DNA of 64,000 bases from an uncultured Elusimicrobia bacterium (GTDB taxonomy: Bacteria; Elusimicrobiota; Elusimicrobia; 2-01-FULL-59-12). Below are positions 1 through 62,344 of this stretch, piece after piece. Below the pieces are notes generated by a model. The model worked only from the letters and a program-made list of their open reading frames with translations. It was not told the origin of the DNA and searched no databases. The first letter of the stretch is position 1. The number at the start of each line of letters is the position of its first letter. Location of the stretch: contig OY969767.1 of the NCBI GenBank assembly GCA_963702895.1, positions 1,100,866 through 1,164,865 of the forward strand. Reading direction: 5' to 3'. Both the position numbers and the translations under genes were made by a program.

Positions 1-3000
1 GACACTCGCAAAGCGTTTACGGACTTGGTCGCTAAGCGTTTGAAACGTTCACTCACCGTGGAGACACTGGACTTGGCTCGCGAAATCGATTTTGGCCGGT
101 GGGACGGCCTCAGCGAAGAGGAAATTCTCAAGAAGTGGGGCCTGGACGAATTGGAGCGTGCGAAACGCTATCGTTACGAGGTTGACCCGACGGTTGTCTC
201 GGAGGGTGGAACGTCTTACCTGGATTTCTTGACCCACCAGGCAAGCGATCTGTTGACGTACATTAACGAGAAACACGCGGGCAAAACGGTGCTCCTCTTC
301 GCCCATGGAACATTGGGAAGCGCTCTGAGCGTATTGCTGTCATACCCCGAAGTGGTCACAAAAGAAGGTCACATTGACTGGCGGGCAATGAATATTCCAA
401 ACGCCGTGCCCTTTCAATTGCAGCGCTATTCGCGACCCGCCGCGGATTCGGCTACGCCCACCGCGGGCCAGCCCGCTAGCCCTGAGCGGTTCGGCAGGCT
501 CACCGCAAGCGAGCTCGCCCTGAGCGAAGTCGAAGGGAGTCGAAGGGCCGCCGCGCCGGATACGGCGGACACGGAGACAACAGAAACACCGACACGGGGA
601 CGCGGAGAAACACCCATTGAAGTTTCCCCGCGTCACCCCGTCGCCGCGTCTGCGCGTCCGACGTCCGATCCCGCCGCCGCGTCAACGGATCCTGACAGTA
701 TCGGATCCACAGACGCCAATAAGGATCATCGACATCACCCACCCATCGGCAATAACCCGCACGATGTCCCCGCCGCACAGTTCCCTGTTCGACCCGCTTG
801 GGTCTATGAGCCTTCGGTTCCACAGGAAATGAGGTCTGAATTGGAGGATATGCTCCTAAAAGGACCTCATCTGCGATCGGTTCTGGAACGCGCTGCAGAT
901 AAGACGCGGCACCCGGTCACAATTGCATTTCAAGCCTATATGAACATTGCGGCCAGAATGGGATATACCCCCGAAATGGGATATTCCATTATGTTTTCTC
1001 AGGAATGGTTGGACGATAATGAACCAAACGCATTGGGCGCTCTTGAACATGAAGTAGCACACATCGGGGTCTATGTCGACGGCATCGCTAACCTGGAGGA
1101 TGACCGAACTTTTCAGACGAGTATGAGAACCCGTCCTCGCAATGATTTCTCCCATTCCGTATTGCAAGCGCTCTCCGATTTTATTGCAGTTTGCTATCAG
1201 CTCGAGCTAAATTGGGTATCGGCCGCCAGTTATATCCTGGACGTGGTCGTCGCGCTGAATCAAAAGAGTCATGCTCGGTGGGTCAACATGGCGCCCGGGG
1301 AACAGACGCGACAGGCTGCTTTCCAATATGCACTGCACTATCTACGGAGTTTTATGGCTTTTGATCATGAGAACAGGGGCGTTGATCCTGCGACTCGCGA
1401 AACCTTTACATTGGCCTTCAAAGACATTTTAACAACCGAGGAAATGACAGTAATCCGTGAAGCGCTCAACGAATCACTGAGGGGCATTCCCCTCACCCAT
1501 TTGACTCATGCAGACTTTTTTGATGCGTTATGCAATAAACTCTACACGCTCGTAGGCTCACTTGCTAAACATTCTCGCGCTGCCGCGCCGGGCACAGCCG
1601 ACACGGAGACACGGGGACCCCCCGCCACTGAGGCATTGGCGGGTCCGCCAAGAAGTAGTGGCGGAGGAGACACGGGGAATCAAGGAGCAAGCGATGGCCC
1701 CTCCGCTTTTGACGTTTCCCCGCGTCCCCCCCTCCCCGCGTCCCCGCGTCCGACGCCCAAACCCGCCGCCGCGCCGCCGACAGTCGAACCGGCGAATGGG
1801 CGAGCCGGCGATCTGGCGAAAGACCCGCCAAATGGTTCGCCGACACACCCCGTCGCCAAGTCGCTGACTCGACCGTCCGATCCCGCGTCGGGTTCGACTT
1901 CGCTCACCACAGGCCCTGAGCGAGCGGGAGCGAGTCGAAGGGCTCCCGCGCTGGAAAGTGCTGATGTGAGAAATGGTTCAGAAGAATTGGACATTCTAAG
2001 CCCAACAATCGACGCTTTGGTCAATCAATTGTGGAAAAGCATTTCACTCAATGACGCTGTGGGAAGATCACAAGCGCGGCGAGAATTGGAAGCCCTTGGG
2101 TTTAGTGTTCAAATTGGATTTTCACGTGAAATGCATCCATATTCTGATCCACAACATATTGAAGCGCTTACGATTTATCAGACGTTAACGAAAATGGCGA
2201 CTCCTGAGCAGCTCCGCTCCATCCGAGACGTTCTTTCGCATGGGATGCAAAATATCGCCAAATGGGGAGGTGGCAGAGGATTTTTATTAATGCGGCTGAA
2301 TACCGAAGCAAGGGCCTTTCAAATTGTGATGGGAGATTCTGGATTGGGAATCACATATGGCGAGGGGCCTCTGAAAGGCAGCCACGCACCGATTCATGAG
2401 GCGGTAAAACTCGGACAATCGTTCGCTGCTGGAAGCGATGGGGGAAAAGGGCTGGCTTATATGGTGATCGATCTCGACGACGTCTCTGTCACTAGCATCA
2501 CCCCTGAAGACGGAGTTGCCCGCGGCCATTGGTGGAGAAAAGGATGGCAACGAGAACGCAGATTGAAGAGTAATCAAAACTTACCCTCACAGGGATTAAA
2601 GATTGTTGGCCAAAAACTTCTTGGCCCCGCCGCCGCGCCCGCCACTACACCGTTGGCGGGCAAGCCGGGCGCAGCCGACACGGGGATCGATTCACCGCGT
2701 CCCCGCGTCCCCCCTACTCCGCGTCATGATCTCTCCGCGTCACCGCGTCACCACGTCGCCGCGTCTGACTCTGTCACGGAGCCCGCCGCCGCGCCGGAAC
2801 GCTTGCCCTCCCAGTTGAAAGGGAAATGGGCGTGGTTGTCGAATGCCTGGGGGGAAGCGTTCCATTGGCTCCTGGCTCCGGCGTTTGGGTTTCAAGACGC
2901 CCGGATGGTCTGGCAGAAGGACCAGGCTCCTTACGTGCATGTCCCCGGCTTGCCGGCCCGCGGCGTCCGGGCGTTTCTAATGGCGGCCGTGCATCCGCTG

Positions 3001-6000
3001 ATCAATCTTTTCTGGACCCTTTTCCCCTGGCTCATTTGGGACCAGCTGGCGGGTCTTCCTCAAGGCCCTCCGGCCCAGATCCTGATCACCGCGCTGATTC
3101 TTCACGCCGTCCTCAACGCCTACGGTTTTCTGGGCAACCTGATCAGCTCCTACGTTTCCCTGGTCCCATTGACTTTCTATGAGTATGACCGCGCCTCCGA
3201 CCACCGCTTGATCGCCCGGCCCCGTTTCTCTATTTCCGTTCCGCGGTGGGAGGTTAAAGCCAACTCGGACTGGAACCGGATGGTTTACACGCTTTCGCTT
3301 GGGCGTCTTGGCCGCAAACCGGAGGGGGATGACCTTCATTCCGAACTGCCGCGGGGCGCCACCCCGGAAGACCGCGCCGCGTCGCCGCGTCGCCGCGTCC
3401 CCGCGTCTGCGCGTCCGCCGTCCTATCCTGCCTCGACACCTCTTTCGTTCAAGCAGAAACAAGCTTTCATTCTCGCTCACGAGGACCGTCTTGGGGACCT
3501 CAAAAACCCTCGCCATAAGCGCGTCTTGCGCAGATATTTCCTGGAAGGAAAGACGCAGGAGGTCTTGGCAGCCGAATTGGGTCAAGGCCAGAGCTCAGTG
3601 TCTTCATTAATAGCACGGGCTTTCCGAGCGCTTCTTGATTGGGTGTATCCCGATGAAGCGTCAGACCTCAAATTTGTGCGTGATCACGAAGACCGCCTTA
3701 GGGAACTCAACAACCCTCGCTATGAGAGCATTTTGCGCGGGTATTTCCTGGAAGGAAAGACTCACGAGGTCTTGGCAGCTGAATTGGGTATCTCCGTTCG
3801 CTCAGTCTCTGACTCAAAAAGAACAGCCATCCGAGTTTTTCGTGATAAGGTGAACCCTGATGAAGCGTCAGACCGCAAATTTGTGATCGACCACGAGGGC
3901 CTGCTTGGGCAGCTCGCTCCTTCCCAAGTGCGCGCATTGACCGGGTATTTCCTGGAAGGTAAGACCCTGCCAGAATTGGCGCACGCTTACGGCATCACAA
4001 AACAGGCGGTGGCCGAAGCAAAAGACCTCGGCTTGAGACAACTGCGAAGATGGGTTAAAACTCATGAGTCGCTTCTCCAGGCGCTCGTCGAGATGGATGG
4101 GTTGGTCACAGTCACGCGTATCAGCCGCCAGGTCGGGGTGACTGCGCTGAGGGTCAATTCTCATGGGGGTGTCACGGGACTGGTCGCTGAAGCGGCACCG
4201 CTGCGCGCGCTAGCGAGGCTGGAAGCGGGTCCCCTTTTCACAACGAGGCCGAAAAGAGACCTCAGTCTTCGGGACAAGGGAATGACGCGACACCGGCAGG
4301 CGACGGGATTGCCGCCGCCGGCGAAGGAACAAACCAAAGGGAATTCCTTCCAGGAATCTGTGAATGCCCGATTCAAATCGGGAACGAAGTCTGAATTGAC
4401 GGAATTCCTGGGAAGCTTAACGTCTGATCAACGGAATCGATTAACGGATGTTCAGCGCCGTTTGCTTCTTTTTGTCTGGCTTTTCATCGATGACCCTATG
4501 GGCGGAGACCATTACGGAAAAATTGGTGAAAAGCTAATTGATTTCCCGATGCAAACATGGATTCTCGGGGACCAATCCGAGCGCCAATCTGATCCGTGGA
4601 TTGCCATGACCGGGGTGGCAAAAACTCTGCAATCTTTCATCTATGAGCTAAGCTTTCACTGGCAGCGTGGGATCCCCTGGCGCCGAAAAACGATGATTGA
4701 TGCTTTACAAGGTCCCACCACGGACTTGCTGGGCGCCGATACATACCAACGATTGGCCGTCTTAGCGAGGGAGCGTCGCTATCCAAAGAAGGGAAATCGC
4801 AGCACCCGTTTGGCCGGGATAGACTCCGATGACAGGATTGTTGATAGCATCGGTGGCATGGACTGGGCCAGGGGTGAATGGTTCAGCAAATACATTGACA
4901 CGCCGTATTATGATGCTTATGCAGGTCTTATTCTCGCCCCTACCGCTGCGTCGAATGATCCGACAAAAATAAATCCAGCCCAGACCCCGCTAGCGCGCGC
5001 CCTCTGGTTGAAAATCGCCGGGAAAAGCGCGACCAACACCCGGGCGGAATCCTGGTTTACGGCGGTCCTCGAATGGCTTCCCTGGCTGGCGCTGGTGGGG
5101 GCAGCGGCGCTCCAAGCCCTGCATTCGCCGAGTGGTTATTCCTGGCTGCTGATCCCGGTCAGCGCTTCGATCGCGATGATCTTTTTATACGCCCTGCACG
5201 CGTGGGTCCCCCGGTGGGCCCCGCCAGGCGTTGAACGCGTAAAAGTCGGGCGCGAAACATGGCCCCTGGCGGCCGGCTTGTTTGCTGTGGACGTCTTGGC
5301 GGGCTTCTCGGTGGCTTGGGGCGTGGGGTTGGCGGCGGTGCCACTCGTTCTGCTGGGGTGGTTCCTTCACGCCAGGCACGACCGGCGAATCTTCAATCAA
5401 CGGACGACAGGCGACCGCGATTTTGGAAAAACGGGATTGAGATTCTTTGTCCTTGGCCTTGGAACGATCTGGCTTGGACGGCGGTGGCCGCCCGGTAACG
5501 CCAGCTATTCAGATCCTTCCGAAGAGGAAATCGATAAACATCTTGAAGAAGCGTTCGTCTCGATGGGGAACAAGGACGGTGTCGTCATGCTGGATACCGC
5601 GGCCGCCTACGGCCGATCGGAGGAGCGCCTCGGGCGCTTCTTGCTAAAACGTCCCGATCTGGCGCGACGCGCTTTTATCGCCACGAAGTGGGGTGAGGAG
5701 TTTGATCCAGTGACGAACCGATCGTGGAAGGATTTCTCGGTTCAAAATCTGAGGGCCTCTTTCAAGCGGAGCCAGGATCACCTTGGCAAAGTGGACCTGC
5801 TTTACATCCACATGTCCACGGACGCCTCCGCGGATGTCCTGCGCGACGAGGCTGTGCGGCAGGAGATGGAACGTATGAAAATCGATGGGGAGGTGCGGCT
5901 CATCGGCGCATCGATCTCCAATGAAGCGATCCTGGCCGAGGCTATAGAACAAGGCTCACTGAATGGCTTCGATGTGATCCAGATGCCGGCCCCTCTCTTT

Positions 6001-6306
6001 TTGAAGCGGCCCGCTTTGGCTTCGGCCTTACACCAACGTGGCTTCGCCGTTGTTCTTAATTCCCCTGTCCGCAAAGCGGACAATCAGAATCCCGAAAACG
6101 CAATCCGTGAATTGGCCAACCGGCCCGAGGTTTCCATGATTCTCACGGGGACCCGGATGCACCTGGGAGAAACGGTGAGCTACCTGGGCACACCTCCCAG
6201 CGCGCCCAAAGGAAGGCTTCCGCTTTGGCGGCAATGGAAAAACTGGCTGTTTGCGCCGGCGGATAAAAACGCTCGCTTCTCTCATCGGGTCCGGGCTGCC
6301 GCGTAA
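1..6306 (+). CDS. Giant multidomain protein, 5' end outside the window. Contains histidine-phosphatase-like, HExxH, GHKL/anti-sigma-kinase-like, 3x sigma-70 region-4-like HTH, TM segments and a C-terminal aldo/keto reductase.
   Basis: Frame 1 has no stop from base 1 to TAA 6304-6306, while all other frames are fragmented. Motifs seen: EIDFGRWDG and FAHGTLGS (His phosphatase), LEHEVAHIG, HGMQNIAKWGGGRG/MGDSGLGI/GGKGLAYM, YFLEGKT..LAAELG x3, and LGLGTIWLG/DTAAAYGRSEE/LLYIHMS (AKR). Confidence 0.6.
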   Translation, partial: DTRKAFTDLVAKRLKRSLTVETLDLAREIDFGRWDGLSEEEILKKWGLDELERAKRYRYEVDPTVVSEGGTSYLDFLTHQASDLLTYINEKHAGKTVLLFAHGTLGSALSVLLSYPEVVTKEGHIDWRAMNIPNAVPFQLQRYSRPAADSATPTAGQPASPERFGRLTASELALSEVEGSRRAAAPDTADTETTETPTRGRGETPIEVSPRHPVAASARPTSDPAAASTDPDSIGSTDANKDHRHHPPIGNNPHDVPAAQFPVRPAWVYEPSVPQEMRSELEDMLLKGPHLRSVLERAADKTRHPVTIAFQAYMNIAARMGYTPEMGYSIMFSQEWLDDNEPNALGALEHEVAHIGVYVDGIANLEDDRTFQTSMRTRPRNDFSHSVLQALSDFIAVCYQLELNWVSAASYILDVVVALNQKSHARWVNMAPGEQTRQAAFQYALHYLRSFMAFDHENRGVDPATRETFTLAFKDILTTEEMTVIREALNESLRGIPLTHLTHADFFDALCNKLYTLVGSLAKHSRAAAPGTADTETRGPPATEALAGPPRSSGGGDTGNQGASDGPSAFDVSPRPPLPASPRPTPKPAAAPPTVEPANGRAGDLAKDPPNGSPTHPVAKSLTRPSDPASGSTSLTTGPERAGASRRAPALESADVRNGSEELDILSPTIDALVNQLWKSISLNDAVGRSQARRELEALGFSVQIGFSREMHPYSDPQHIEALTIYQTLTKMATPEQLRSIRDVLSHGMQNIAKWGGGRGFLLMRLNTEARAFQIVMGDSGLGITYGEGPLKGSHAPIHEAVKLGQSFAAGSDGGKGLAYMVIDLDDVSVTSITPEDGVARGHWWRKGWQRERRLKSNQNLPSQGLKIVGQKLLGPAAAPATTPLAGKPGAADTGIDSPRPRVPPTPRHDLSASPRHHVAASDSVTEPAAAPERLPSQLKGKWAWLSNAWGEAFHWLLAPAFGFQDARMVWQKDQAPYVHVPGLPARGVRAFLMAAVHPLINLFWTLFPWLIWDQLAGLPQGPPAQILITALILHAVLNAYGFLGNLISSYVSLVPLTFYEYDRASDHRLIARPRFSISVPRWEVKANSDWNRMVYTLSLGRLGRKPEGDDLHSELPRGATPEDRAASPRRRVPASARPPSYPASTPLSFKQKQAFILAHEDRLGDLKNPRHKRVLRRYFLEGKTQEVLAAELGQGQSSVSSLIARAFRALLDWVYPDEASDLKFVRDHEDRLRELNNPRYESILRGYFLEGKTHEVLAAELGISVRSVSDSKRTAIRVFRDKVNPDEASDRKFVIDHEGLLGQLAPSQVRALTGYFLEGKTLPELAHAYGITKQAVAEAKDLGLRQLRRWVKTHESLLQALVEMDGLVTVTRISRQVGVTALRVNSHGGVTGLVAEAAPLRALARLEAGPLFTTRPKRDLSLRDKGMTRHRQATGLPPPAKEQTKGNSFQESVNARFKSGTKSELTEFLGSLTSDQRNRLTDVQRRLLLFVWLFIDDPMGGDHYGKIGEKLIDFPMQTWILGDQSERQSDPWIAMTGVAKTLQSFIYELSFHWQRGIPWRRKTMIDALQGPTTDLLGADTYQRLAVLARERRYPKKGNRSTRLAGIDSDDRIVDSIGGMDWARGEWFSKYIDTPYYDAYAGLILAPTAASNDPTKINPAQTPLARALWLKIAGKSATNTRAESWFTAVLEWLPWLALVGAAALQALHSPSGYSWLLIPVSASIAMIFLYALHAWVPRWAPPGVERVKVGRETWPLAAGLFAVDVLAGFSVAWGVGLAAVPLVLLGWFLHARHDRRIFNQRTTGDRDFGKTGLRFFVLGLGTIWLGRRWPPGNASYSDPSEEEIDKHLEEAFVSMGNKDGVVMLDTAAAYGRSEERLGRFLLKRPDLARRAFIATKWGEEFDPVTNRSWKDFSVQNLRASFKRSQDHLGKVDLLYIHMSTDASADVLRDEAVRQEMERMKIDGEVRLIGASISNEAILAEAIEQGSLNGFDVIQMPAPLFLKRPALASALHQRGFAVVLNSPVRKADNQNPENAIRELANRPEVSMILTGTRMHLGETVSYLGTPPSAPKGRLPLWRQWKNWLFAPADKNARFSHRVRAAA
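557..683. repeat. 8-nt-period inverted tandem-repeat hairpin element (GGRGACRC / CCGCGTCN class), in frame in the giant ORF
   Basis: Left arm is about 7 units (cggatacg gcggacac ggagacaa ... gggacgcg gagaaaca). Loop is cccattgaagttt. Right arm is about 7 units (ccccgcgt caccccgt cgccgcgt ctgcgcgt ...). Translates as TADTETTETPTRGRGE..SPRHPVAASARPTSDP. Confidence 0.7.
1048..1062 (+). other. HExxH motif (HEVAH) within the giant ORF
   Basis: cat gaa gta gca cac is in frame, in the context LGALEHEVAHIGVY. Zincin-like motif only; no further fold evidence. Confidence 0.4.
1598..1755. repeat. Composite 8-nt-period hairpin element (GACACGGR / CCCCGCGT class), in frame in the giant ORF
   Basis: ccgacacg gagacacg gggacccc and ggagacacggggaatc face tttccccgcgtcccccctccccgcgtccccgcgtccgacg. 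An inner inverted repeat ccgccact...agtggcgg is also present. Confidence 0.65.
1791..1864. repeat. 8-nt-period hairpin element (GGCGARNN / NNTCGCC class), in frame in the giant ORF
   Basis: ggcgaatg ggcgagcc ggcgatct ggcgaaag is followed by ...ggttcgcc gacacacc ccgtcgcc aagtcgc. Confidence 0.6.
2239..2470 (+). other. GHKL-type ATPase-like segment (SpoIIAB/RsbW-like) of the giant ORF
   Basis: N-box-like HGMQNIAKW, G1-like MGDSGLGI and G2-like GGKGLAYM occur in the expected order. Confidence 0.45.
2675..2768. repeat. 8-nt-period repeat element with a short left arm and a long CCGCGTCN right arm, in frame in the giant ORF
   Basis: ccgacacggggatc is followed by caccgcgt ccccgcgt ... ctccgcgt caccgcgt caccacgt cgccgcgt. 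Translates as SPRPRVPPTPRHDLSASPRHHVAAS. Confidence 0.65.
3375..3422. repeat. Six tandem 8-nt units (CGCCGCGT type), half-element, in frame in the giant ORF
   Basis: cgccgcgt x3, then ccccgcgt, ctgcgcgt, ccgccgtc. The 48 nt equal 16 codons (ASPRRRVPASARPPS). Confidence 0.75.
3466..4086 (+). repeat. Three tandem 207-nt coding repeats, each a sigma-70 region-4 / LuxR-like HTH module
   Basis: Units start at 3466, 3673 and 3880. Peptide pattern is F(I/V)xDHExxLxxLxxP..LRxYFLEGKTxxxLAxELGxSxxSV...PDEASDxK. DNA-level similarity includes tatttcctggaagg(a/t)aagac in all three. Confidence 0.8.
5430..6303 (+). other. Aldo/keto reductase domain at the C-terminus of the giant ORF
   Basis: GLRFFVLGLGTIWLG, MLDTAAAYGRSEERLGRFL, FIATKWG, DLLYIHMS and IGASISN are typical AKR landmarks. 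Confidence 0.75.
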
Positions 6307-6364: not shown

Positions 6365-6438
6365 GTGATTAGGCAGGTTCTCCTTGAAAAATTAAGCAGG
6401 TTGGCTGAGAGATTAGGTAGGCTCCTCCCAGAGAAGCG
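6365..6438. repeat. Array A: 3-4 contiguous ~21-nt direct repeats (GATTAGGCAGGTT type) abutting the ORF6N stop codon
   Basis: Units are gtgattaggcaggttctccttga, aaaattaagcaggttggctgag, agattaggtaggctcctcccag. Confidence 0.7.
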
Positions 6439-6951
6439 CTATTCATGCTTGAAGCCTTTGATCCGTAATGGGGCATCCGCCGGCTTTGCCATCAGCCCAC
6501 GGATCGCGTCGAAGACCACTTTAAATTGCGCGTCGTATTTGTTTTCCAGCTCATGCAGCTTGCGGGCCAAGTCTTTGTGAGTGGCCAACATCTCTCTGAT
6601 CCTTACAAAGGCATCCACAACCGCGAGGCTTGCTTTCACGGCGGTCTCACTATTGAGAACGCAAGCCAGCATGATCGCGCCATGCTCCGTGAAAACAAGG
6701 GGCAAATAACGTCGCCCTCCGTGGGCCATTCTTGAGGTCGCATTTTGCGACCTCAAGCGGCGCGCTTCCCCTTCGGCAAGCTGGAACATATATCGAGGCG
6801 GGAACCGGATTCGATTTCGCTTCACCTGTTCATTCAAACGTTTGGTCGTTACTCCATAGAGTTCCGCCAGATCTTCGTCCAGCATCACTTTATATCCACG
6901 AATCAGATAAATATACTGCTCAATCTTGATGCTCGGTACAGGTTTATTCAT
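6439..6951 (-). CDS. ORF6N-domain (KilA-N-related) DNA-binding protein
   Basis: IEQYIYLIRGYKVMLDEDLAELYGVTTKRLNEQVKRNRIRFPPRYMFQL is a textbook ORF6N signature. ATG at 6951 is preceded by GGAGAGGAGG. Confidence 0.85.
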   Translation of the reverse strand: MNKPVPSIKIEQYIYLIRGYKVMLDEDLAELYGVTTKRLNEQVKRNRIRFPPRYMFQLAEGEARRLRSQNATSRMAHGGRRYLPLVFTEHGAIMLACVLNSETAVKASLAVVDAFVRIREMLATHKDLARKLHELENKYDAQFKVVFDAIRGLMAKPADAPLRIKGFKHE

Positions 6952-7116
6952 GGGCTCCTCCTCTCCCTTAGATGGAGAACACCCGAAAATATTCACTGCT
7001 TAGACAAAGAGTTCAGACCCATCCGAGAACCCATTGCGTTTCGCATTTCGCCTTTTACATTCTTCATTTTGACTTGAGACACACCAGCGGTCGCAAGAGA
7101 TGAAGCAGCTTCGTCA

Positions 7117-7414
7117 AAGATTAGGCAGGTTCCCCTGGAAAGATTAAGCAGGTTCACGGAAAGATTGAGACGGCTCCTCGAAGAACGAGACGGTTGGTCG
7201 GGAAAGAAAGAGACGGTTGGCAAAGAGAATGAGACGGCTCCTCGAAGATTAGGTAGGTGACCCCGGAAAGATTAGGCAGGTTGGCCGAAAGATTAGGTAA
7301 GTTCCTCGAAGATTAGGTAAGTTCCCCGCGAAAGATTAGGTAAGTCGACCGAAAGATTAGGTAAGCTGGCGGAAAGATTAGGTAAGTTGACCGAAAGATT
7401 AAGCAGGTCTGTCC
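7117..7414. repeat. Array B: about 14 contiguous 19-23-nt direct repeats, consensus AAGATTAGGTAAGTTsnCCG
   Basis: Units were read one by one. The left units are degenerate (aagattgagacggctcctcg, aagaacgagacggttgg...). The right units are near-perfect. The last unit supplies the final codons and stop of the 7399 ORF. Confidence 0.85.
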
Positions 7415-7749
7415 GCGCCGGACGGCACGGGTTGGTACAGCGTGGCGGGGTCACGGGGATCGCCGGAGCGCTTGATCAGGCCGCGGTCCATGAGGTTGCC
7501 CAGGATTCTTAAGGTGGCCGTGCGCGAAAGGTTTAGCAGCTTTTCCACATCCTCCCGGCGCAGGCCGGCGCTCTGGCGCGCGGCGTCCAGGATCATCTTC
7601 TCGTAGCGTTCCCGTTTGCGGCTGACCCAGCGGTTTTGGGTGGAGGGGGGCAGGGGGTGACGAAGGCGTCGGCGCCGCGGCCTGGCCTTCGCCCTCGAGC
7701 TGTTGTTTGAGCCCCCGTGCGCCTTTTCAAACAGGTCGAACAGATCAGG
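7399..7749 (-). pseudogene. 5'-truncated, frameshifted duplicate of the 3' end (wHTH domain) of gene 9680..10423
   Basis: 7442-7573 differs from 9723-9854 at 4 positions by eye. Upstream homology continues to about 7730 but reads RPRRRRLRHPLPPSTQ where the intact copy reads GESAAPPPSSPTPSTQ (frame change). No TM region or start is present. Confidence 0.7.
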
Positions 7750-7834
7750 TCAAGCAAATCCAGGTTCCAAACACGCTTCATCGCAAAGGATGTGGAAGGC
7801 GAGCGCAGGGTTCTGTTATACAATCATCGTCAAG

Positions 7835-8482
7835 ATGACGCCAAAGGATCGTTACGATGTGTCCGATTTGCCGGAGGCGCAGTTTGAGCCGGGCTCACGA
7901 AGGCAGGTTCTGCGCAATCGTTTAGGCATCAGAACGATTGCCGCCATGGAGAATGCCGAAGAGCTGGCCTTGAAAAAGGCGACAGACATTCTTCTGCATA
8001 CCTACTCAAAGGACCATCGCTTTAAGGCCAATGACATCCGTCATATGCACCGGCTTTGGCTATCGGACATCTACGGCTGGGCAGGCAATTATCGGAGGGT
8101 CAATCTGAGCAAGACGGGATTCATGTTTGCTGTTGCCCAGCACGTTCCCGGATTGATGCAGGAATTTGAAACGACTGCTCTGAAAGAATGCACCCCTTGT
8201 CATCCTGGGGATATTGAGACGATTGCAGAACATTTGGCGAAGGTCCACGTTGAACTCGTGCTGATACACCCCTTCCGGGAAGGAAACGGACGTGTTGCCC
8301 GGCTACTCACGACCTTCATGGCGCTCCAGGCCGATCTGCCGCTCCTGGATTACAGAAGCATTCTGGGGAAATCGACACCCGTTTATTTTGCCGCCATTCA
8401 AGCGGGCATGAAACGAGACTACTTGCCCATGCGGAAAGTGATGAAATCAGTGATTGCGCGTACGCTCAGGCGGCTTTCTTAA
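7835..8482 (+). CDS. Fic/DOC family protein (likely AMPylating toxin)
   Basis: Canonical Fic motif IHPFREGNGRVARLL (HxFx[D/E]GNGRxxR). ATG at 7835; the longer TTG start at 7703 is probably spurious. No internal SxxxE[G/N] inhibitory motif was seen. Confidence 0.85.
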   Translation: MTPKDRYDVSDLPEAQFEPGSRRQVLRNRLGIRTIAAMENAEELALKKATDILLHTYSKDHRFKANDIRHMHRLWLSDIYGWAGNYRRVNLSKTGFMFAVAQHVPGLMQEFETTALKECTPCHPGDIETIAEHLAKVHVELVLIHPFREGNGRVARLLTTFMALQADLPLLDYRSILGKSTPVYFAAIQAGMKRDYLPMRKVMKSVIARTLRRLS

Positions 8483-8636
8483 ACAGGCGTATTTTCTGCT
8501 TTAAGGTGCGGAGCGCCGTGGCAAAAGAACCCGTTTCGACGGCGGTAGAAGAGGCGACGTTCAGCGTGAGCGCCTTTTCGTATTTGCGCCGGTCTCGAAG
8601 GTAGGGGCTCGTCGCCAGCAGTGATTTCTTTTTCAT
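8466..8636 (-). CDS. Small ORF (56 aa), candidate VbhA-like Fic antitoxin, convergent with and overlapping the fic 3' end by 17 nt
   Basis: My own translation is MKKKSLLATSPYLRDRRKYEKALTLNVASSTAVETGSFATALRTLKQKIRLFKKAA. STAVET resembles the alpha-inh motif [S/T]xxxE[G/N], with T instead of G/N. It falls below the 60-aa cutoff of the ORF track. Confidence 0.4.
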   Translation of the reverse strand: MKKKSLLATSPYLRDRRKYEKALTLNVASSTAVETGSFATALRTLKQKIRLFKKAA

Positions 8637-8702
8637 GAAACAAGTCTACCATGATGGCCGCACCAATTCCAGACTTCCCAGCCGTTGCAGAAAGGACCTC
8701 CT

Positions 8703-9449
8703 ATGAAATTCGAGCTTTCTGACGAACAACTGAAAAATCTGCTGGTTCTGGCGTATCTGGGCGAATGGATGGCTAATGCGACCAGGGAAGAGCCGATCAA
8801 AGACTATGAGCAAGCCGCTTCCAGGATTTACGCCCTGGCCCAAGGAACCGCGCTGGAGCGCTACGTGGACTACGATGATCAGTCGCGGCGGTGGTGGCCC
8901 AGCAAGGAGCTGGACGAAGCAGCGGAACCGTTGCGCAGCGATTATGACGATGAGACGTTCTGGGACGAACTGCTGGACCGCCTGATCGACCGGGACCTTG
9001 CCGCAACATACGGGGTTGGGATTTTGGGTTCGAAGGACCGTGATAAATATTGCGCCCTGCGAGAGCCGATCGAGTCACGCTACGGGACGGAGTTTGAACG
9101 CTTTGGGATTGATCGCCTCAAGCTGCCCGAGGGTCTTCCTGAAGAAGACGCTTACTCCCCCTCGCCGGCCCAGGCGACAGCGATGGGCTTGGCGTGGTAC
9201 CGGTCCGATCAATGGGAACAGCTTCGGTCCATCTCCGCGGACCGCGATGAGCTCGAAGAAAGATACGTGGAATGGTTAAAGACCGCTTCTAACCTCTTTT
9301 CCCAGCTCACGCTGCGGGGTCAAGAGATCAAAAAGGTATTAGTGGACGTCAATGATCTCGCCAAATGGTGTAAAGCCAAGGGCCTTCTTGTCGATTCCCA
9401 TTCCCGATCTGCTTTCGTCGCGGACCAGCTCCGAACGACGAAGTCCTGA
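8703..9449 (+). CDS. Acidic hypothetical protein (248 aa), cargo of the Fic cassette
   Basis: Long non-repetitive ORF with ATG at 8703. No motif recognised. Confidence 0.6.
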   Translation: MKFELSDEQLKNLLVLAYLGEWMANATREEPIKDYEQAASRIYALAQGTALERYVDYDDQSRRWWPSKELDEAAEPLRSDYDDETFWDELLDRLIDRDLAATYGVGILGSKDRDKYCALREPIESRYGTEFERFGIDRLKLPEGLPEEDAYSPSPAQATAMGLAWYRSDQWEQLRSISADRDELEERYVEWLKTASNLFSQLTLRGQEIKKVLVDVNDLAKWCKAKGLLVDSHSRSAFVADQLRTTKS

Positions 9450-9526
9450 CAAGCATCCGCTTCCCGGAGGTTGGCAGTACGAATGAGCGCCGAAGGACGC
9501 CAAAGCGACCCGAGGCCGGATTGGCA

Positions 9527-9695
9527 AATAGATTAACCGGGTTCCTCGAAGATCGGGCCGGTTCCCCGAAAGATTAGGCAGGTTGGCCGAAAGATTAGGT
9601 AAGTTCCTCGAAGATTAGGTAAGTTCCCTGCGGAAGATTAGGTAAGTTGGCCGAAAGATTAGGTAAGTTAACCGAAAGATTAGGCAGGCTTGTCC
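9527..9695. repeat. Array C: 8 contiguous ~20-nt direct repeats, same family and order as the right part of array B
   Basis: Units include aagattaggcaggttggccga, aagattaggtaagttcctcg, aagattaggtaagttccctgcgg. The last unit encodes KPA-stop of gene 9680..10423. Confidence 0.85.
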
Positions 9696-10423
9696 GTCGC
9701 AGCCTGCCCGGATTGGTAGAGCGTGGCGGGGTCACGGGGATCGCCGGCGCGCTTGATCAGGCCGCGGTCCATGAGGCTGCCCAGGATCCTTAAGGTGGCC
9801 GTGCGCGAAAGGTTCAGCAGCTTTTCCACATCCTCCCGGCGCAGGCCGGCGCTCTTGCCAGTGGCGTCCAGGACAATCTTCTCGTAGCGTTCCCGCTTCC
9901 GGCTGACCCAGCGGTGTTGGGTGGAGGGGGTAGGGGGTGACGAAGGCGGCGGGGCCGCGGACTCGCCTTTGGCCTCGAGCTGCCGTTCGAGTTCCTGATG
10001 CGCTTTTTCCTCCACGCGGACGCTCAACCACCGGGAGGCACTCGATCCGATGTAGAACCCGAGGACTTCGAAGGCAATCAAGGTAAGTCCCTTGGGGTAG
10101 GCCAGGCGCGCCGGCCAGATCTCGGAGCCGAGCACCGCCACGAGCAGGAAGACCGCCCATAGTCCGACGAACCATTCCCCTTTGAGCCGGAAAGGCGCGG
10201 GTTGCGTCTCTCCTTCGGCCGCCAGTTTCTCCGGATGGAAGCCGATCGTCCACCGGTGGACTTCTTTCCCCCCCACATAAGCCGAAAGCAATGCCAGGTA
10301 GAAGGCGTTGGCGGTGCTGACGTTGATCTGGACATGAGCGGCGGTGGCGAACTCCGCGACCTGCACGCCGAAAAGAGCCAGGGTGTAGAGCGCGCTCAGC
10401 CAGAAAAGAAAGGTCATGCTCAA
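9680..10423 (-). CDS. Membrane protein with about 4 TM helices, a coiled-coil linker and a C-terminal winged-helix (MarR-like) domain
   Basis: Hydrophobic N-terminal half. C-terminus is GLRREDVEKLLNLSRTATLRILGSLMDRGLIKRAGDPRDPATLY. Its ATG overlaps the ogt stop (ATGA). Confidence 0.7.
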   Translation of the reverse strand: MSMTFLFWLSALYTLALFGVQVAEFATAAHVQINVSTANAFYLALLSAYVGGKEVHRWTIGFHPEKLAAEGETQPAPFRLKGEWFVGLWAVFLLVAVLGSEIWPARLAYPKGLTLIAFEVLGFYIGSSASRWLSVRVEEKAHQELERQLEAKGESAAPPPSSPPTPSTQHRWVSRKRERYEKIVLDATGKSAGLRREDVEKLLNLSRTATLRILGSLMDRGLIKRAGDPRDPATLYQSGQAATDKPA

Positions 10424-29326: not shown

Positions 29327-32300
29327 TTATTTCCGGAGGTAGATCAGCTTAAAAATGGCTTTTTCGCCCAGCGCGCGCGAAATGGCTTCCGTGTAAGCTT
29401 GAGCCTGCAGAGCGTAGGGGTCGGATTCGACGGCCGAACGACCGACGTTTTGGGTCGTTTTGTAGTCCCCCACCACGAGCTGCCCGGATGGGAGGCGGTA
29501 GAGGATATCGAGGGTGCCCCGCATCAGCTGACGTATCGGCGTATCGGCGTGCCGGCGTACCGGAGTAACGTCGTTACCCCGATACTCCGATACCCCGATA
29601 CTCCGATCCTGTTCACTATCATAGAAGAACGGCACCTCCCTCCCTAAAATCTCCGATCCTTTGATCTCCTCGTAGTCCTTCGATCGCATAAAGTCGGCCA
29701 AGAGGCGCTGGGCCTCCTCCACGACGGCGATGATTTCGGGAGGGTTGCTGGTTTTCCGGCCCAGCTTCAGCTCAGGAAAAGGTTCCAACAGGAGGCCTTC
29801 TTGAGCGAAAGAGGTGTTCGCGACTCGGCGTAAGGCCGTTGGCATCGTCTCTTTTTCAGCTTGAAAGTCCCAGGTTTCGAGGAATTGATGGACGAGCGTG
29901 CCCAGCCGTGCGGGATCGATACGGCGAAGCGGAGAATCGGCGAAGCGGCGAGTGGACCACTTCTCTGGCTCGCCGGCTCGCCGGCTCGCCGGCTCAGTCC
30001 ATTGTGTGGGGCTCATCACCCGTAACGTCTTCATCGCTTGTTCATAAGTTTCGGACTGCTCCTGCCACCGCGCGGCGAGTTCGACTGGCTTAATCGCGGC
30101 CAGCCAGGCTGGCTTCGTTGAGTCGGGCGCAGGCAAGGGCGCCTCCTTCGAAGTGATCGTGTGGGCCGTGAGGGTGCTTTCGCCCATACGGATGAGGCCA
30201 TCCCCCAGTTCATCCAGATTGAGTTTCCAGGCACTCGCAAGCTGGTTGAGGAAACTGTCTTTCGCAGGTCGCTTCAAGTGGATGCCTCCGGACAAAATGA
30301 GCCGCTCTTTGGCGCGGGTCATGGCCACATAGAGGATGCGCAAGTCTTCGGCCGCCTCCCGGACCTTGGCGTCTTCCTCCAGCGCCGCGCAGTCGAGGCT
30401 TTCCACATCCTTGTCCAGCGCGATGCCGAGGCGTCCCGTCGCCCAATCGTAATGCACGCGGAGATTATCCTTCCGCCTGTTTCCGCCCTTGCCTCGGTGC
30501 AGACCGGGGAGCCAGACCACAGGAAACTCCAATCCTTTTGCTTTATGCACGGTCAGGAGCCGCACGGCATCATAGGTTTCGTCTGCAAGAGGATACTCCC
30601 CTTCCAACCGGTCGTTTTCCATAAAGCGGTCGATCTTTCCTAACAGACCGCCCAACGTGGTTTCACCTTCCTCCGCAAAGGATTCCATCAGGCGCTTGAG
30701 CTTGAGCAGGTTCGCCATTGTCTGGTCTTGGTGATAGGAACGGGCCGCGAGTTCCATGAGATAGGTGTCTTCATAGACATGGTTCAAAATGGATTTCAGG
30801 GGCTCACGCTGGGCCCTTCTCTGCAAGTTGTTGATCAACTGGAACGTTTTTGCGGCGTGCTGGTCCTCCGGGGGCGCTCTCCATCCGGCCTCTTTGATCG
30901 CTGTGAGCTCAGGGTCTGTAAAGCCCCCCAGCGGCGATCGCAAGAATCCCGCTAAGGCCAGGTGATGGGAAGGGTCCTCGGTCACACGGAGGAGGTTGAG
31001 AACATCGGTCACCTCGGGTGTGCGATAGAAGTAGCGTTCGGCCTCGACCACAAAGGGAATATGGCGCCGGCGAAGCTCCTCGATAAAAGGCAGCATCGCG
31101 GTGGTGGCGCGGAAGATGAGCGCGATGTCCTTAAACCGAAGGCCGTCCGACGTGCGACGTCCGAGGTCCATATCACTTAGGTTTGTACGTGCCTCTTTGA
31201 CGTCGGACGTAGGACGTCGGACGCGGGAATCGATCCACGCCGCGGCGTCCGCCGCTTCTTGTTCGAGAGCTTCCTCGGAGGTTTGTGGTTCGCCGGAAAC
31301 GGCCAGTCGTAATTCCACATCCTGGTGCTCGCTCTCTTTGGCCCGCCGGGGGACGAGGGCTTGATAGGCGGGTGAGATCGGATGCTGTTCCTTCATGAGC
31401 GACGAGAACGTGGTGTTGATCGTGTGGATGATCTGGTCGTGGGAGCGATAACTGTCTTCAAGACTGAGGCGCTGGCCGCCTTGCGCGAGCACCATCTCCG
31501 TGATGCGCTGGTAGGCCGCAATGTCAGCGCCGCGAAAACGGTAGATCGATTGCTTCGGATCACCCACAAGGAAGAGTTTCCCGGGTTCGAGCTTCACTTG
31601 GTCCCAGCGTTTGGCCTGGGTGCCGAGCTGCTCCGAGAGAAAGACCAGGAGCTCGCCCTGAAGCGGGTCGGTGTCCTGGAATTCGTCGACGAAAATCTGC
31701 CGGATCTTGTTCTTTAAAGTCTCCCTGACATGCGCCTCACGCGCCACCAGCTCACGGGCAAGCACGAGGAGCGCGTCATTCGAAAGATGTCCCTCTGCCA
31801 AAATCTTGGCGCGGAAACGCGCGACAAATGGCTTAAGCAATTGGGTCAGGTCGCGAAGCTTGACGTTTTCTTCTGCGCCCTGAAGCGGCAGGCGATCCAA
31901 GGGCACATCAAATTCACACAGGCGCCGCGCGAGTTCTCTGATTTTCCCAAGGGAAACCGTCTGCAAGACGTTGAGCCAATCACTTGCTCGAGGCTCGAGG
32001 CGATGGGCTCCTGACGAATGTGGGGTGTGCTGGCCTGGGGCATGGAGCCTGGAGCTGTCTCGGATTCTGGGGCCTGTGCCCTGGAGTTCGTGCCTCAACC
32101 AGGCAGGCCATTCTTTTTCAAAGAGATCATCGGCCCGTACGCCCTTGTCATCGACTTCCGCGGCGGGACTGATGCCTGCGGCGATGGGAAAACGTTTCAA
32201 CAGGCTGAAGGCGTAAGAATGGATCGTTCCAATCGCGGCGCGGTCGATGGCCTCCAGCGCCTCGCGCGCGCGGGATTTCCGATCGTCCGAGGCATCGCGC

Positions 32301-32494
32301 TCCAGGGTGTTGTGAAGTTCCGCCGCGATGCGCTCTTTCATCTCGCCCGCCGCTTTCTTCGTGAAGGTCAGCGCGACCAGCGTCTCCATCGGCAGGTTTT
32401 TCTGGAACAGAGCCTCTAAAATAGCCTGGACGAGCGTGTGGGTCTTCCCTGTGCCAGCGCTGGCTTCGATGACGATGTTACGGGAGAGATTCAT
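29327..32494 (-). CDS. addA: UvrD-family helicase with a C-terminal PD-(D/E)XK nuclease (AddA-type)
   Basis: Walker A IEASAGTGKTHTL, helicase motifs (FVDEFQDTD, LVGDPKQSIYRFRGA, TVHKAKGLEF) and nuclease RGTLDILY...VVGDYKT. ATG at 32494; the 116-codon extension was rejected. Confidence 0.85.
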   Translation of the reverse strand: MNLSRNIVIEASAGTGKTHTLVQAILEALFQKNLPMETLVALTFTKKAAGEMKERIAAELHNTLERDASDDRKSRAREALEAIDRAAIGTIHSYAFSLLKRFPIAAGISPAAEVDDKGVRADDLFEKEWPAWLRHELQGTGPRIRDSSRLHAPGQHTPHSSGAHRLEPRASDWLNVLQTVSLGKIRELARRLCEFDVPLDRLPLQGAEENVKLRDLTQLLKPFVARFRAKILAEGHLSNDALLVLARELVAREAHVRETLKNKIRQIFVDEFQDTDPLQGELLVFLSEQLGTQAKRWDQVKLEPGKLFLVGDPKQSIYRFRGADIAAYQRITEMVLAQGGQRLSLEDSYRSHDQIIHTINTTFSSLMKEQHPISPAYQALVPRRAKESEHQDVELRLAVSGEPQTSEEALEQEAADAAAWIDSRVRRPTSDVKEARTNLSDMDLGRRTSDGLRFKDIALIFRATTAMLPFIEELRRRHIPFVVEAERYFYRTPEVTDVLNLLRVTEDPSHHLALAGFLRSPLGGFTDPELTAIKEAGWRAPPEDQHAAKTFQLINNLQRRAQREPLKSILNHVYEDTYLMELAARSYHQDQTMANLLKLKRLMESFAEEGETTLGGLLGKIDRFMENDRLEGEYPLADETYDAVRLLTVHKAKGLEFPVVWLPGLHRGKGGNRRKDNLRVHYDWATGRLGIALDKDVESLDCAALEEDAKVREAAEDLRILYVAMTRAKERLILSGGIHLKRPAKDSFLNQLASAWKLNLDELGDGLIRMGESTLTAHTITSKEAPLPAPDSTKPAWLAAIKPVELAARWQEQSETYEQAMKTLRVMSPTQWTEPASRRAGEPEKWSTRRFADSPLRRIDPARLGTLVHQFLETWDFQAEKETMPTALRRVANTSFAQEGLLLEPFPELKLGRKTSNPPEIIAVVEEAQRLLADFMRSKDYEEIKGSEILGREVPFFYDSEQDRSIGVSEYRGNDVTPVRRHADTPIRQLMRGTLDILYRLPSGQLVVGDYKTTQNVGRSAVESDPYALQAQAYTEAISRALGEKAIFKLIYLRK
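29532..29609. repeat. 8-nt-period hairpin element (CGTATCGG / CCGATACN class), in frame in addA (78 nt, 26 codons)
   Basis: cgtatcgg cgtatcgg cgtgccgg cgtaccgg agtaacg | tcgttac cccgatac tccgatac cccgatac tccgatcc. About 7 of 8 positions per unit are complementary between arms. Peptide is GVSEYRGNDVTPVRRHADTPIRQ. Confidence 0.85.
29923..29998. repeat. 8-nt-period hairpin element (GGCGARNN / GGCTCGCC class), in frame in addA
   Basis: ggcgaagc ggagaatc ggcgaagc ggcgagtg, loop gaccacttctct, then ggctcgcc x3 and ggctcagt. Peptide is SRRAGEPEKWSTRRFADSPLRR. Confidence 0.85.
31143..31226. repeat. 8-nt-period hairpin element (GTCCGACG / CGTCGGAC class), in frame in addA (84 nt, 28 codons)
   Basis: ccgtccgacgtgcgacgtccgaggtcc, a 31-nt loop, then cgtcggacgtaggacgtcggacgcgg. 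Peptide is VRRPTSDVKEARTNLSDMDLGRRTSDG. Confidence 0.8.
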
Positions 32495-32922
32495 AGTGAG
32501 GCGGCGCGCGGTTGAAAGAGAAATAAAGCATAAGTCTTGAGTGAAAGCCAGCGAAATCTCGTCCGCCCTTCTGGCGTGAGCGCCCCCCACGAGCCGTGAG
32601 AAGCAGGAAATCTTTAGGGGTAGGTTGTCTCCTCTTTCCCTGGAGCAGGCGCCTGCTCGCTCCAGCGAAATTTCCCCCTCCATGGCCCCAGTCCTGCATG
32701 GCCACGGAGGGTCAGCGTTTTGGCTTCGGGCAGCCTGCGGAACTCCCCGCCAGACGTCTTGGCGGGTCAAACAGTCCTCCGCCACTGGGTCTCTGGCGGA
32801 CGCCAACGTCGTAGTGGCGTCGGCTTGACTCGCCCTCGCCAAAACGCTTGAAATTTCGAGTCGCTCGTCAGGCTCCTGCTCCAGGGAAAGAGGCGCAACT
32901 CCATCTTGATAGCATTAACATC

Positions 32923-59208: not shown

Positions 59209-59442
59209 TGGCCATTGTACCACTTTCTGACGCGCCTCGTCCGAATCAGGCCGGCCGTCACTGGCCGGAGTTTCGTGCTCCGTCGGAAGAGGAAGCCTCC
59301 CTTGAGCCAAAGATGAAGCCTCTCGGCAGAACGATTGAGCAGGGGGCGCAAAAAGATTAGGTGTCTAACGGGGCGGTTGTCACATCGATCTGGACCGGAT
59401 TGTGCGAAACTCGAGAACAAGTCCAAGGTCGCATGCGCCGCC

Positions 59443-62223: not shown

Positions 62224-62233
62224 ATGAGGTTGA

Positions 62234-62323
62234 GCCGGCGAGTCGGCGAGTCGGCGAGTCGGCGCAAGAACGATCCAAGCGGTCTCCCACATTCCGCCGG
62301 TTCGCCGGTTCGCCAGTTCACCG
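62234..62323. repeat. 8-nt-period hairpin element (GTCGGCGA / TCGCCGGT class) in the leader between pheT and the kinase-deaminase gene
   Basis: gccggcga gtcggcga gtcggcga gtcggcg, a 29-nt loop, then ccgccggt tcgccggt tcgccagt tcaccg. Confidence 0.85.
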
Positions 62324-62344
62324 TTTCCCTTTGTCTTCGGAACG

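Follow-up and report, generated by a model that had tools for sequence, protein, structure and literature searches.

Three head-to-tail arrays of a direct repeat of about 21 nucleotides (nt), here called A, B and C, are present in a 64,000-nt stretch of DNA from an uncultured Elusimicrobia bacterium (assembly GCA_963702895.1, contig OY969767.1, positions 1,100,866 to 1,164,865; hereafter the window), which confirms an earlier observation. The conserved partner of these arrays is a minus-strand gene (9680-10423; 247 amino acids (aa); protein P0001) encoding four predicted transmembrane (4TM) helices followed by a winged helix-turn-helix (wHTH) domain, and every homologue of this gene with readable DNA carries its own array at its stop codon. 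Because the arrays are non-coding and conservedly tied to a winged-helix gene, a multimeric protein-binding platform stays their best reading. More specifically, it is tentatively proposed, with a confidence falling just short of even, that the arrays are a putative binding platform, placed beside its own gene, for a membrane-tethered winged helix. They are iteron- or centromere-like in layout and a member of neither family, and the gene-array module appears to be a small, apparently undescribed family; a limited literature search, which is weak evidence of absence, found no account of such a module.

The arrays had been described as spacerless head-to-tail rows, and a search with the repeat core recovers them at the places given, array B starting about 20 nt further left than first annotated. 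All three belong to the minus strand. Array A (6365-6432) holds three units, each two mismatches from the core, and possibly a degenerate fourth unit overlapping the stop codon of a gene with an ORF6N domain. Array B (7097-7418) has about 15 units, the distal ones including GAGACGG variants, with four AAGANNGAGACGGYT variants at 7161-7244. Array C (9529-9699) consists of eight units, of 21, 21, 23, 20, 21, 21 and 20 nt plus a terminal unit. Each unit is made of the 15-nt core AAGATTAGGYARGTT and a spacer of 5, 6 or 8 nt, and the spacers fall into three classes, CCTCG producing a 20-nt, GGCCGA a 21-nt and CCCNGSGA a 23-nt unit; these three unit lengths combine into a 64-nt higher-order repeat detected by Tandem Repeats Finder (TRF). 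Allowing up to three mismatches, the core has 23 matches in the 64 kb against 2.5 expected from dinucleotide shuffles, 20 of them inside arrays A-C and all of these on the plus strand, while 14 of the 15 copies of the exact 9-mer AAGATTAGG in the window (0.27 expected) fall in arrays B and C. Elsewhere in the window the arrays are absent. Variation among the window cores is almost solely confined to transitions at three positions, and the hexamer TAATCT is nearly invariant.

The position of the arrays relative to minus-strand stop codons was also correctly perceived at the outset. The TAA stops of the two wHTH frames (7399-7401 and 9680-9682) sit within the gene-proximal core of arrays B and C, so that this unit encodes RPA-stop or KPA-stop, as had been claimed, and the ORF6N stop (6439-6441) is located 15 nt from the closest core of array A. 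The same annotation held that the arrays are neither coding repeats nor terminators nor CRISPRs, and these exclusions stand. On the plus strand, TAA or TAG occurs in two of the three frames of every core, and the 20- and 23-nt units disrupt every frame on both strands; since every locus combines 21-nt units with others of 20, 22 and 23 nt, all frames are interrupted and a coding repeat is rejected. The arrays and their immediate flanks contain no recognisable intrinsic terminator or sigma-70-like promoter. A CRISPR is rejected because the gaps between cores measure 5-8 nt and recur in three classes, and no cas genes were seen. A replication origin was discarded as well, since DnaA-box-like 9-mers are scattered instead of clustered at the arrays, the two nearest lying within the duplicated wHTH coding sequence, and there is no AT-rich unwinding element. 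Finally, a similarity of the unit to the wHTH coding segment AAGCTGCTGAACCTTTCG (9809 and 7528) reaches 10.3 bits, which is background, given that unrelated sites of the window reach 12-14 bits.

The link to the wHTH gene is borne out by the six homologue loci for which DNA was readable (L053-L058; proteins 42-73% identical), which make seven loci together with the window. In all six, a co-oriented tandem array starts 0-30 nt past the stop of the gene. The arrays of L054-L058 have periods of 19-23 nt, and that of L053 shows AAGCTRCC anchors 12-22 nt apart. The array of L055, whose protein is 73% identical, is composed of seven ACCTGCTTAATCTT units of the same family as those of the window; the units of L056 and L058 are of the A[AC][CG]CTGCTCAYTTTT type, and those of L054 and L057 are TTCCTTTCGGWTCTT and CTCCTRYCGGATCTC. 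Unit number varies, from three, about 15 and eight in the window to between 3 and 11 or more in the homologue loci. Besides its main array, L057 has a second one of five units (1145-1285), separated by about 480 nt from a phd-yoeB pair and the 4TM-wHTH gene downstream of it; the two arrays agree in orientation and in terminal motif (GGATCTCCGTCGATAGCA). Five further loci, available as gene maps only, have 150-270 nt without a called gene after the family gene. The initial annotation had raised the alternative of a generic satellite or randomly dispersed repeat. Locus-specific weight matrices find the motif solely inside the arrays in the window and the loci, and lenient TRF runs at the same settings over these roughly 91 kb yield only two other arrays of period 17-25, both unrelated. 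The L056 and L058 contigs end within the array, about 50-85 nt past the stop, as expected if repeats break assemblies, and most other homologue contigs measure only 0.9-2 kb, so that metagenome assemblies probably under-report the module.

Exact-pattern scans for two to three consecutive cores returned 32 loci from GTDB, 20 from JGI metagenomes and none from IMG/VR, in collections that do not include the source genome. All 32 GTDB and 20 JGI loci were rejected as unrelated satellites with a 10-24-nt period that contain AAGATTAGG by chance. Among them, L001, L003, L004, L006, L012, L013, L015, L016, L025, L026, L029 and L031 are intergenic (AAGATT/AGGATT)n hexamer or 12-mer runs from genomes of Verrucomicrobiota, Planctomycetota and Lentisphaerota. 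Many of these runs have an inverted counterpart (L012, L001 and L025 are examples) with which they would form long low-complexity hairpins; save for the common 9-mer, they are unrelated to the 21-nt arrays.

The sequence of the arrays is not free to vary as that of neutral DNA would be. Aligned arrays are identical at a fraction of 0.70 of positions between the window and L055 and of 0.67 between L054 and L057, with scores two to three times those of the best shuffle, and third codon positions of the adjacent genes are identical at 0.46-0.50 (orthologues at 73-74% protein identity). In the L054/L057 comparison, the distal end of the array is orthologously conserved though the DNA just past it does not align. 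As tandem repeats inflate the alignment scores of arrays, unit consensuses, chosen by hand, were compared as well. Between the window and L057, at 52% protein identity, 15 of 21 unit positions are the same in the register anchored at the stop codon (shuffle p = 3e-4), and a chain of significant unit similarity runs L056-L058-L055-window-L057-L054. Spacer classes are also common to several genomes, CGAGG to the window, L055 and L056 and TCGGCC to the window and L057, and an ATCTC-CGTCR motif ends the arrays of L054, L055 and L057 (both arrays). Judged from these sequence comparisons, the arrays are constrained and their unit sequence drifts together with the protein. A recognition helix of the form SR[TA]A[TS]LRI pairs with CTGCY-TAATCT units and one of the form K[IV][TS]A..AL with TCCTNNCGGWTCT, a co-variation that is confounded with phylogeny among these few related loci.

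The protein encoded next to the arrays is predicted to start with four transmembrane helices, which a Pro/Ser-rich linker connects to a MarR-like winged helix at the C terminus. Residues 183-231 of P0001 match Pfam MarR_2 with an E value of 3.5e-5, which is under the cut-off. AlphaFold2, run on a 16-sequence alignment, places helices at 3-26, 35-60, 82-102 and 111-151 with moderate confidence and folds the wHTH (168-238) at a pLDDT of 85-91. The best Foldseek matches of P0001 in the PDB are MarR-family regulators, several of them DNA-bound, although these matches are weak (E about 2e-3; TM-score about 0.4 normalised to the target). A sequence-profile search of the PDB gave nothing significant, its top matches including the eS25 winged helix at E 0.04. 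The membrane domain is the most conserved part of the family protein, and it matched no Pfam family. Four helices would place both ends of the protein on the same side of the membrane, and the Lys/Arg-rich 60-82 loop and post-TM4 segment suggest that this side is the cytoplasm.

A search of 5.8 billion proteins retrieved 16 homologues at 42-82% identity, none of them named in any source, and a repeat search using their alignment returned the same 17 proteins. One of the homologues, P0002, is a second full-length paralogue on the same contig (82% identity). A profile search of 1.84 billion representatives extended the set to 393 relatives, many of which carry the same 4TM domain fused to other classical DNA-binding helix-turn-helix domains (HTH_24, IclR, DeoR, MarR_2) and some of which consist of the 4TM domain alone.

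From this layout a mode of action can be sketched. The family protein would insert into the membrane with both ends in the cytoplasm, and the C-terminal winged helix, translated last, would emerge beside its target during co-translational membrane insertion and bind the repeats next to the gene under expression. Binding of the adjacent DNA would be favoured because the sites start in the gene's own stop codon and the DNA-binding domain is made last. One unit corresponds to roughly two turns of the helix and the 64-bp superunit to roughly six, so that successive sites would face the same side, and many wHTH copies could line one face of the DNA to build a membrane-tethered nucleoprotein block on their own locus. 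Such a block may serve locus anchoring, insulation of or a roadblock to transcription leaving the gene, or titration of the protein. Topology, binding and action on the adjacent DNA are what we infer in this scheme. Its most ambitious version, a locus-to-membrane module in which the wHTH, exposed at the moment when the ribosome arrives at the stop codon within the first repeat, coats the array and pins the chromosome to the membrane while the arrays double as landing pads for the exchange of defence and toxin-antitoxin cassettes, seems rather doubtful to us. The closest parallels to a winged helix at the cytoplasmic membrane face, as predicted here, are ToxR, TcpP and CadC. In these promoter-binding regulators, an OmpR-type wHTH at the N terminus precedes a single transmembrane helix and a periplasmic sensor, whereas in the family protein the wHTH follows four helices at the C terminus and its candidate sites are situated in the 3′ flank of the gene itself.

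Several observations weigh against the proposal of a wHTH-binding platform. The N-terminal half of P0001 is the 4TM domain in place of the MarR dimerisation helices, and the candidate sites are direct repeats, whereas MarR-type domains usually bind palindromes as dimers; a half-site periodicity of 10-11 bp appears as weak autocorrelation only. The genes next to the module vary between loci and no regulated target is apparent. As the seven readable loci are related, the constant linkage is partly a matter of common descent. While the wHTH is a candidate reader of the repeats, the reader may be another factor. The pyrimidine-rich sense strand, with C in excess of G, would fit a role at the RNA level, in a 3′ untranslated region (3′-UTR), equally well, as would the location at the stop codon and the fact that every array runs in the direction of its gene.

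This last point leads to the alternative that the array acts as RNA, that is, as an unstructured, pyrimidine-rich 3′-UTR that would constitute a Rho-loading (rut-like) terminator or a platform for an RNA-binding protein. In a variant of this explanation, the winged helix itself would possibly bind the array RNA and hold the mRNA at the membrane. All ten arrays (10/10) are co-oriented and start at or just past the stop with no intrinsic terminator between, and in every locus the sense strand has a C/G ratio of 1.4-2.1 and is 55-71% pyrimidine, compared with a C/G of about 1.0 in the genes. The sense RNA is structured no more than shuffles (z = -0.34; the antisense, with z = +1.69, folds no better either), and the eS25 domain among the non-significant PDB matches is an RNA-binding winged helix. 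The arrays share with rut regions a C>G unstructured RNA of at least 70 nt directly after the stop. However, a generic rut needs no conserved 15-nt core, recurring spacer classes or gene-specific conservation; known rut regions lack a tandem conserved 15-nt core and, unlike the arrays, are not specific to one gene family. Furthermore, such a tail follows no other gene of the 64 kb, and arrays A and B and the second L057 array (L057') are maintained although no intact family gene adjoins them. The arrays match no known RNA family or motif: Rfam gave no family at the gathering threshold and only a meaningless mir-320 match at E <= 1, and a CsrB/RsmZ-type sponge RNA was rejected because the units of the window, L055 and L056 lack the CsrA motif GGA on either strand and there is neither a fold nor an Rfam match. 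A mimic of the 3′ end of 16S rRNA (anti-Shine-Dalgarno), suggested by pyrimidine-rich resemblances (CCUCCU in L057, AACCUGC in the window), was dropped as inconsistent across loci; the window contains no 16S rRNA gene. We consider an RNA-level role of the arrays unlikely.

The arrangement of genes around the arrays brings up a further possibility, namely that they are mainly recombination substrates, a landing pad for accessory or defence cassettes, which may coexist with protein binding. Read along the minus strand, the order is 4TM-wHTH gene, array C, a cassette on the other strand, a partial wHTH copy, array B, the ORF6N gene and array A, beyond which a convergent long open reading frame (ORF) ends at 6306. 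The cassette between C and B consists of an uncharacterised 248-aa gene (8703-9449, plus strand) and a Fic-domain gene (7835-8482, plus strand) with an HPFREGNGR motif. The former has no Pfam or NCBIfam match, its C-terminal 83 aa matching phrog_4753. The latter is of defence or toxin type (Pfam Fic, 1.2e-17; PADLOC PDC-S04, a candidate system, 8e-71), with NCBIfam Fic models below their cut-offs. The partial copy (7399-7728, minus strand; identified with tblastn) corresponds to the 3′ 330 nt of the 4TM-wHTH gene, aligned to 9680-10010; it is frameshifted upstream and retains an intact 65-codon wHTH ORF (7399-7596) with a new ATG. Within the 47-codon wHTH core, the B and C copies differ by three synonymous and two non-synonymous changes, and both tails are heavily diverged. 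The 65-codon ORF could encode a soluble wHTH that competes for the arrays, or it could have arisen by gene conversion or be a pseudogene in decay. The duplication extends into the repeats, 7215-7730 being a duplicate of 9527-10010: the proximal nine units of array B are paralogous to array C, with which proximal B shares 148 of 171 aligned positions and from which it differs by one 21-nt unit.

The ORF6N (KilA-N-like) gene (6439-6951, minus strand; 170 aa from the ATG) forms a second cassette, between arrays B and A. It matches Pfam ORF6N (1.8e-31), PADLOC PDC-S05 (a candidate family, 1e-50) and a PHROG anti-repressor (5.8e-25). The G+C content falls to 0.45-0.50 across 6700-7300, against 0.58-0.67 in the flanks, and the minimum covers the start of ORF6N, its upstream region and array B; both cassettes are lower in G+C. 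The gene looks like an insertion, and array A is probably the distal stub of an array that this insertion split. The presence of three arrays is explained by the duplication of the 3′ half of the module with its array around the Fic and 248-aa cassette, giving C and B, and the separation of B from A probably by the splitting of an older array by the ORF6N cassette. The initial suggestion that the ORF6N protein is a partner of the arrays does not survive these data, the gene being of lower G+C, a match to a candidate defence family and situated between two pieces of array.

Cassettes bracketed by arrays occur in two genomes (Fic plus 248 aa and ORF6N in the window, phd-yoeB in L057), and genes of toxin-antitoxin or defence type (PIN-Phd, HicB-like, AAA_14/DUF4143, Macro) adjoin other homologues. 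The low G+C of the cassettes and the layout of the B/C duplication, which is as expected from a single-crossover circle holding the 3′ part of the gene, the array and the Fic cassette, point in the same direction. However, no integrase or transposase is found nearby in any locus, L054, L055, L056 and L058 have a single array with no second one to bracket a cassette, and a recombination hotspot alone leaves the conservation of the core sequence unexplained. It is quite improbable that recombination is the main role of the arrays. Other neighbours across the loci include an MGMT-like DNA-binding domain, M16 peptidases, an aminotransferase, a methyltransferase, CT398-like genes and toxin-antitoxin genes; in L055 a tRNA-Ala(GGC) gene (2383-2458) is located about 60 nt past the end of the array, and the window has no tRNA. 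Three of the six homologue loci have the CT398-like gene (CT398_CC plus Zn_ribbon_9; L054 9090-9818, L056 836-1552, L058 253-969) at a distance of 0.1-3 kb from the 4TM-wHTH gene, and the window does not, which suggests that the window copy is a non-syntenic paralogue.

It could also be postulated that the arrays are a neutral minisatellite, seeded from the last codons of the gene, grown by replication slippage and carried along with it. The first unit extends across the stop into the final codons of the gene in both the window and L058, and unit number varies between copies, B and C differing by a one-unit insertion or deletion. A known precedent for such an overlap is provided by the mycobacterial interspersed repetitive units (MIRU), intergenic tandem repeats whose first unit overlaps the stop of the upstream gene. 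MIRU units are 40-100 bp long, dispersed at many loci and not tied to a gene family, whereas the units here are of about 21 nt and found only beside the family gene. Neutrality is in turn difficult to reconcile with cores that can still be recognised in loci whose proteins are 50% identical, a distance at which synonymous sites are saturated, with the orthologous conservation of the distal array end in L054/L057 next to a flank that is not conserved, or with the limitation of core variation in the window to three transition sites. We consider a purely neutral origin and maintenance very unlikely.

The initial annotation compared the arrays with iteron-type multimeric binding sites. The multimeric, putatively protein-binding part of that comparison is retained as the best reading, and the strict iteron part is not. 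In plasmids P1 (repA-incA), mini-F (repE-incC), R6K and pPS10, direct repeats of about 19-22 bp are found directly downstream of the gene for a winged-helix initiator, and in iteron plasmids such arrays titrate or pair the protein made beside them. The likeness resides in the 20-, 21- and 23-nt units, the two-turn spacing, the 3-15 copies and the neighbouring wHTH gene. Similarly, sopC after sopB in F, parC with ParR in R1 and tubC with TubR in pBtoxis are rows of repeats beside the gene for the binding protein that coats them into a complex, and TubR is itself a winged-helix protein that binds direct repeats; in the present case an array adjoins a winged-helix gene in seven of seven readable loci. 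The explanation that the arrays are genuine plasmid-type iterons, or the partition centromere of an integrated or former replicon, therefore draws on a reminiscent layout, direct repeats of about 21 bp directly downstream of a winged-helix gene. Yet Pfam and NCBIfam searches detected no Rep_3 or WH1-WH2 initiator, the sub-threshold MarR_2 match on one wHTH being all that was obtained, and no ParA, ParM or TubZ partner NTPase is encoded in any of the seven loci. Neither the protein nor the array has a match in 72,556 plasmids, viral contigs hold no relative of the protein and no array match (IMG/VR 0), and the scattered DnaA-box-like 9-mers speak against an origin. The contig, of 2.72 Mb and 57.5% G+C, has housekeeping genes as neighbours. 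Thus, in place of an initiator, origin features and a plasmid there is a 4TM-anchored protein with a single MarR-like wHTH, and in place of a partition motor there is a membrane anchor in a chromosomal setting, which makes a true iteron or centromere highly improbable.

Last, coding heptad repeats (sense frame N-L-P-N-L-S-[AV]), reached by frameshifting or readthrough, are almost certainly not the explanation. The window, L055 and L057 do share L[LP][ND]LS[AV] in the same frame, where changes at the two core positions that vary most leave Leu unaltered, but this peptide resemblance follows automatically from the conservation of the DNA. In all loci, no frame stays open for more than one to three units before a unit of 20, 22 or 23 nt interrupts it, stops occupy two of three frames and the longest such ORFs reach 46-53 aa.

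A solitary copy of the core at 59353 had been proposed as a further member of the repeat family, a proposal that was not sustained. The site is an exact 9-10-mer only and fails the 15-mer search, and a single AAGATTAGG match is only weakly surprising on its own (0.27 expected). The surrounding segment (59285-59375), about 70-150 nt downstream of a minus-strand gene ending at 59443, has a weak second unit at 59331, 22 nt from 59353, both being weak matrix matches; it may be a degenerate, co-oriented repeat remnant, though statistically a borderline case. A nearby 17-mer, CCGTCACTGGCCGGAGT (59255-59271), is identical to the post-stop region of L054, with a blastn-short E of 0.033 that is no better than chance matches.

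The window contains other repeated elements besides the arrays. There are many elements of about 80-110 nt in which two inverted arrays of 7-8-nt tandem repeats (4-5 copies each) flank a 13-30-nt loop, as in (GTAACGGR)x4 ... (CYCCGRTA)x4. They are located at 1717-1820, 2692-2772, 3375-3420, 29532-29607, 29922-29995, 31144-31223, 39392-39425, 60162-60252, 60530-60564/60726-60757 and 62232-62327. Several are embedded in long ORFs that continue through them in frame, giving rise to similar peptides in unrelated proteins, such as ...GVSEYRGNDVTPVRRHADTPIR... in a UvrD/AddA-like ORF (29327-32842, minus strand) and ...VSEYRSTGVSGSEQLQNDVTPLPRYPVTPLRS... in a PLD-like ORF (59443-60522, minus strand); in this respect they recall the Rickettsia palindromic elements. 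In addition, a 207-nt tandem duplication (3477-3885; two copies, 77% match) encodes helix-turn-helix-like modules of the type '...RYFLEGKT.EVLAAELG...'. It sits within the ORF that occupies 25-6306 (2093 codons), which has a histidine phosphatase-like start and an aldo/keto reductase-like end and may be a fusion or several genes joined.

What was already known is the coupling of direct-repeat arrays to the gene of their presumed binder, and what is new in the module described here is the pairing of an array with the gene of a putatively membrane-anchored wHTH protein. To our knowledge, a DNA-membrane tether encoded together with its own binding site is not a mechanism that has been described for bacterial chromosomes. 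The association with defence and toxin-antitoxin cassettes suggests, moreover, that in this lineage the module either labels a hotspot of integration or brings one about. If the wHTH does bind its own 3′ array, the module would represent a compact and tractable system, in which a membrane protein is encoded beside its multi-site DNA target. It would then constitute a chromosomal, motor-less relative of the iteron- and centromere-style arrangement of a gene and its adjacent array, and would offer a handle on the old question of whether particular chromosomal loci are attached to the membrane in bacteria, and by what means.

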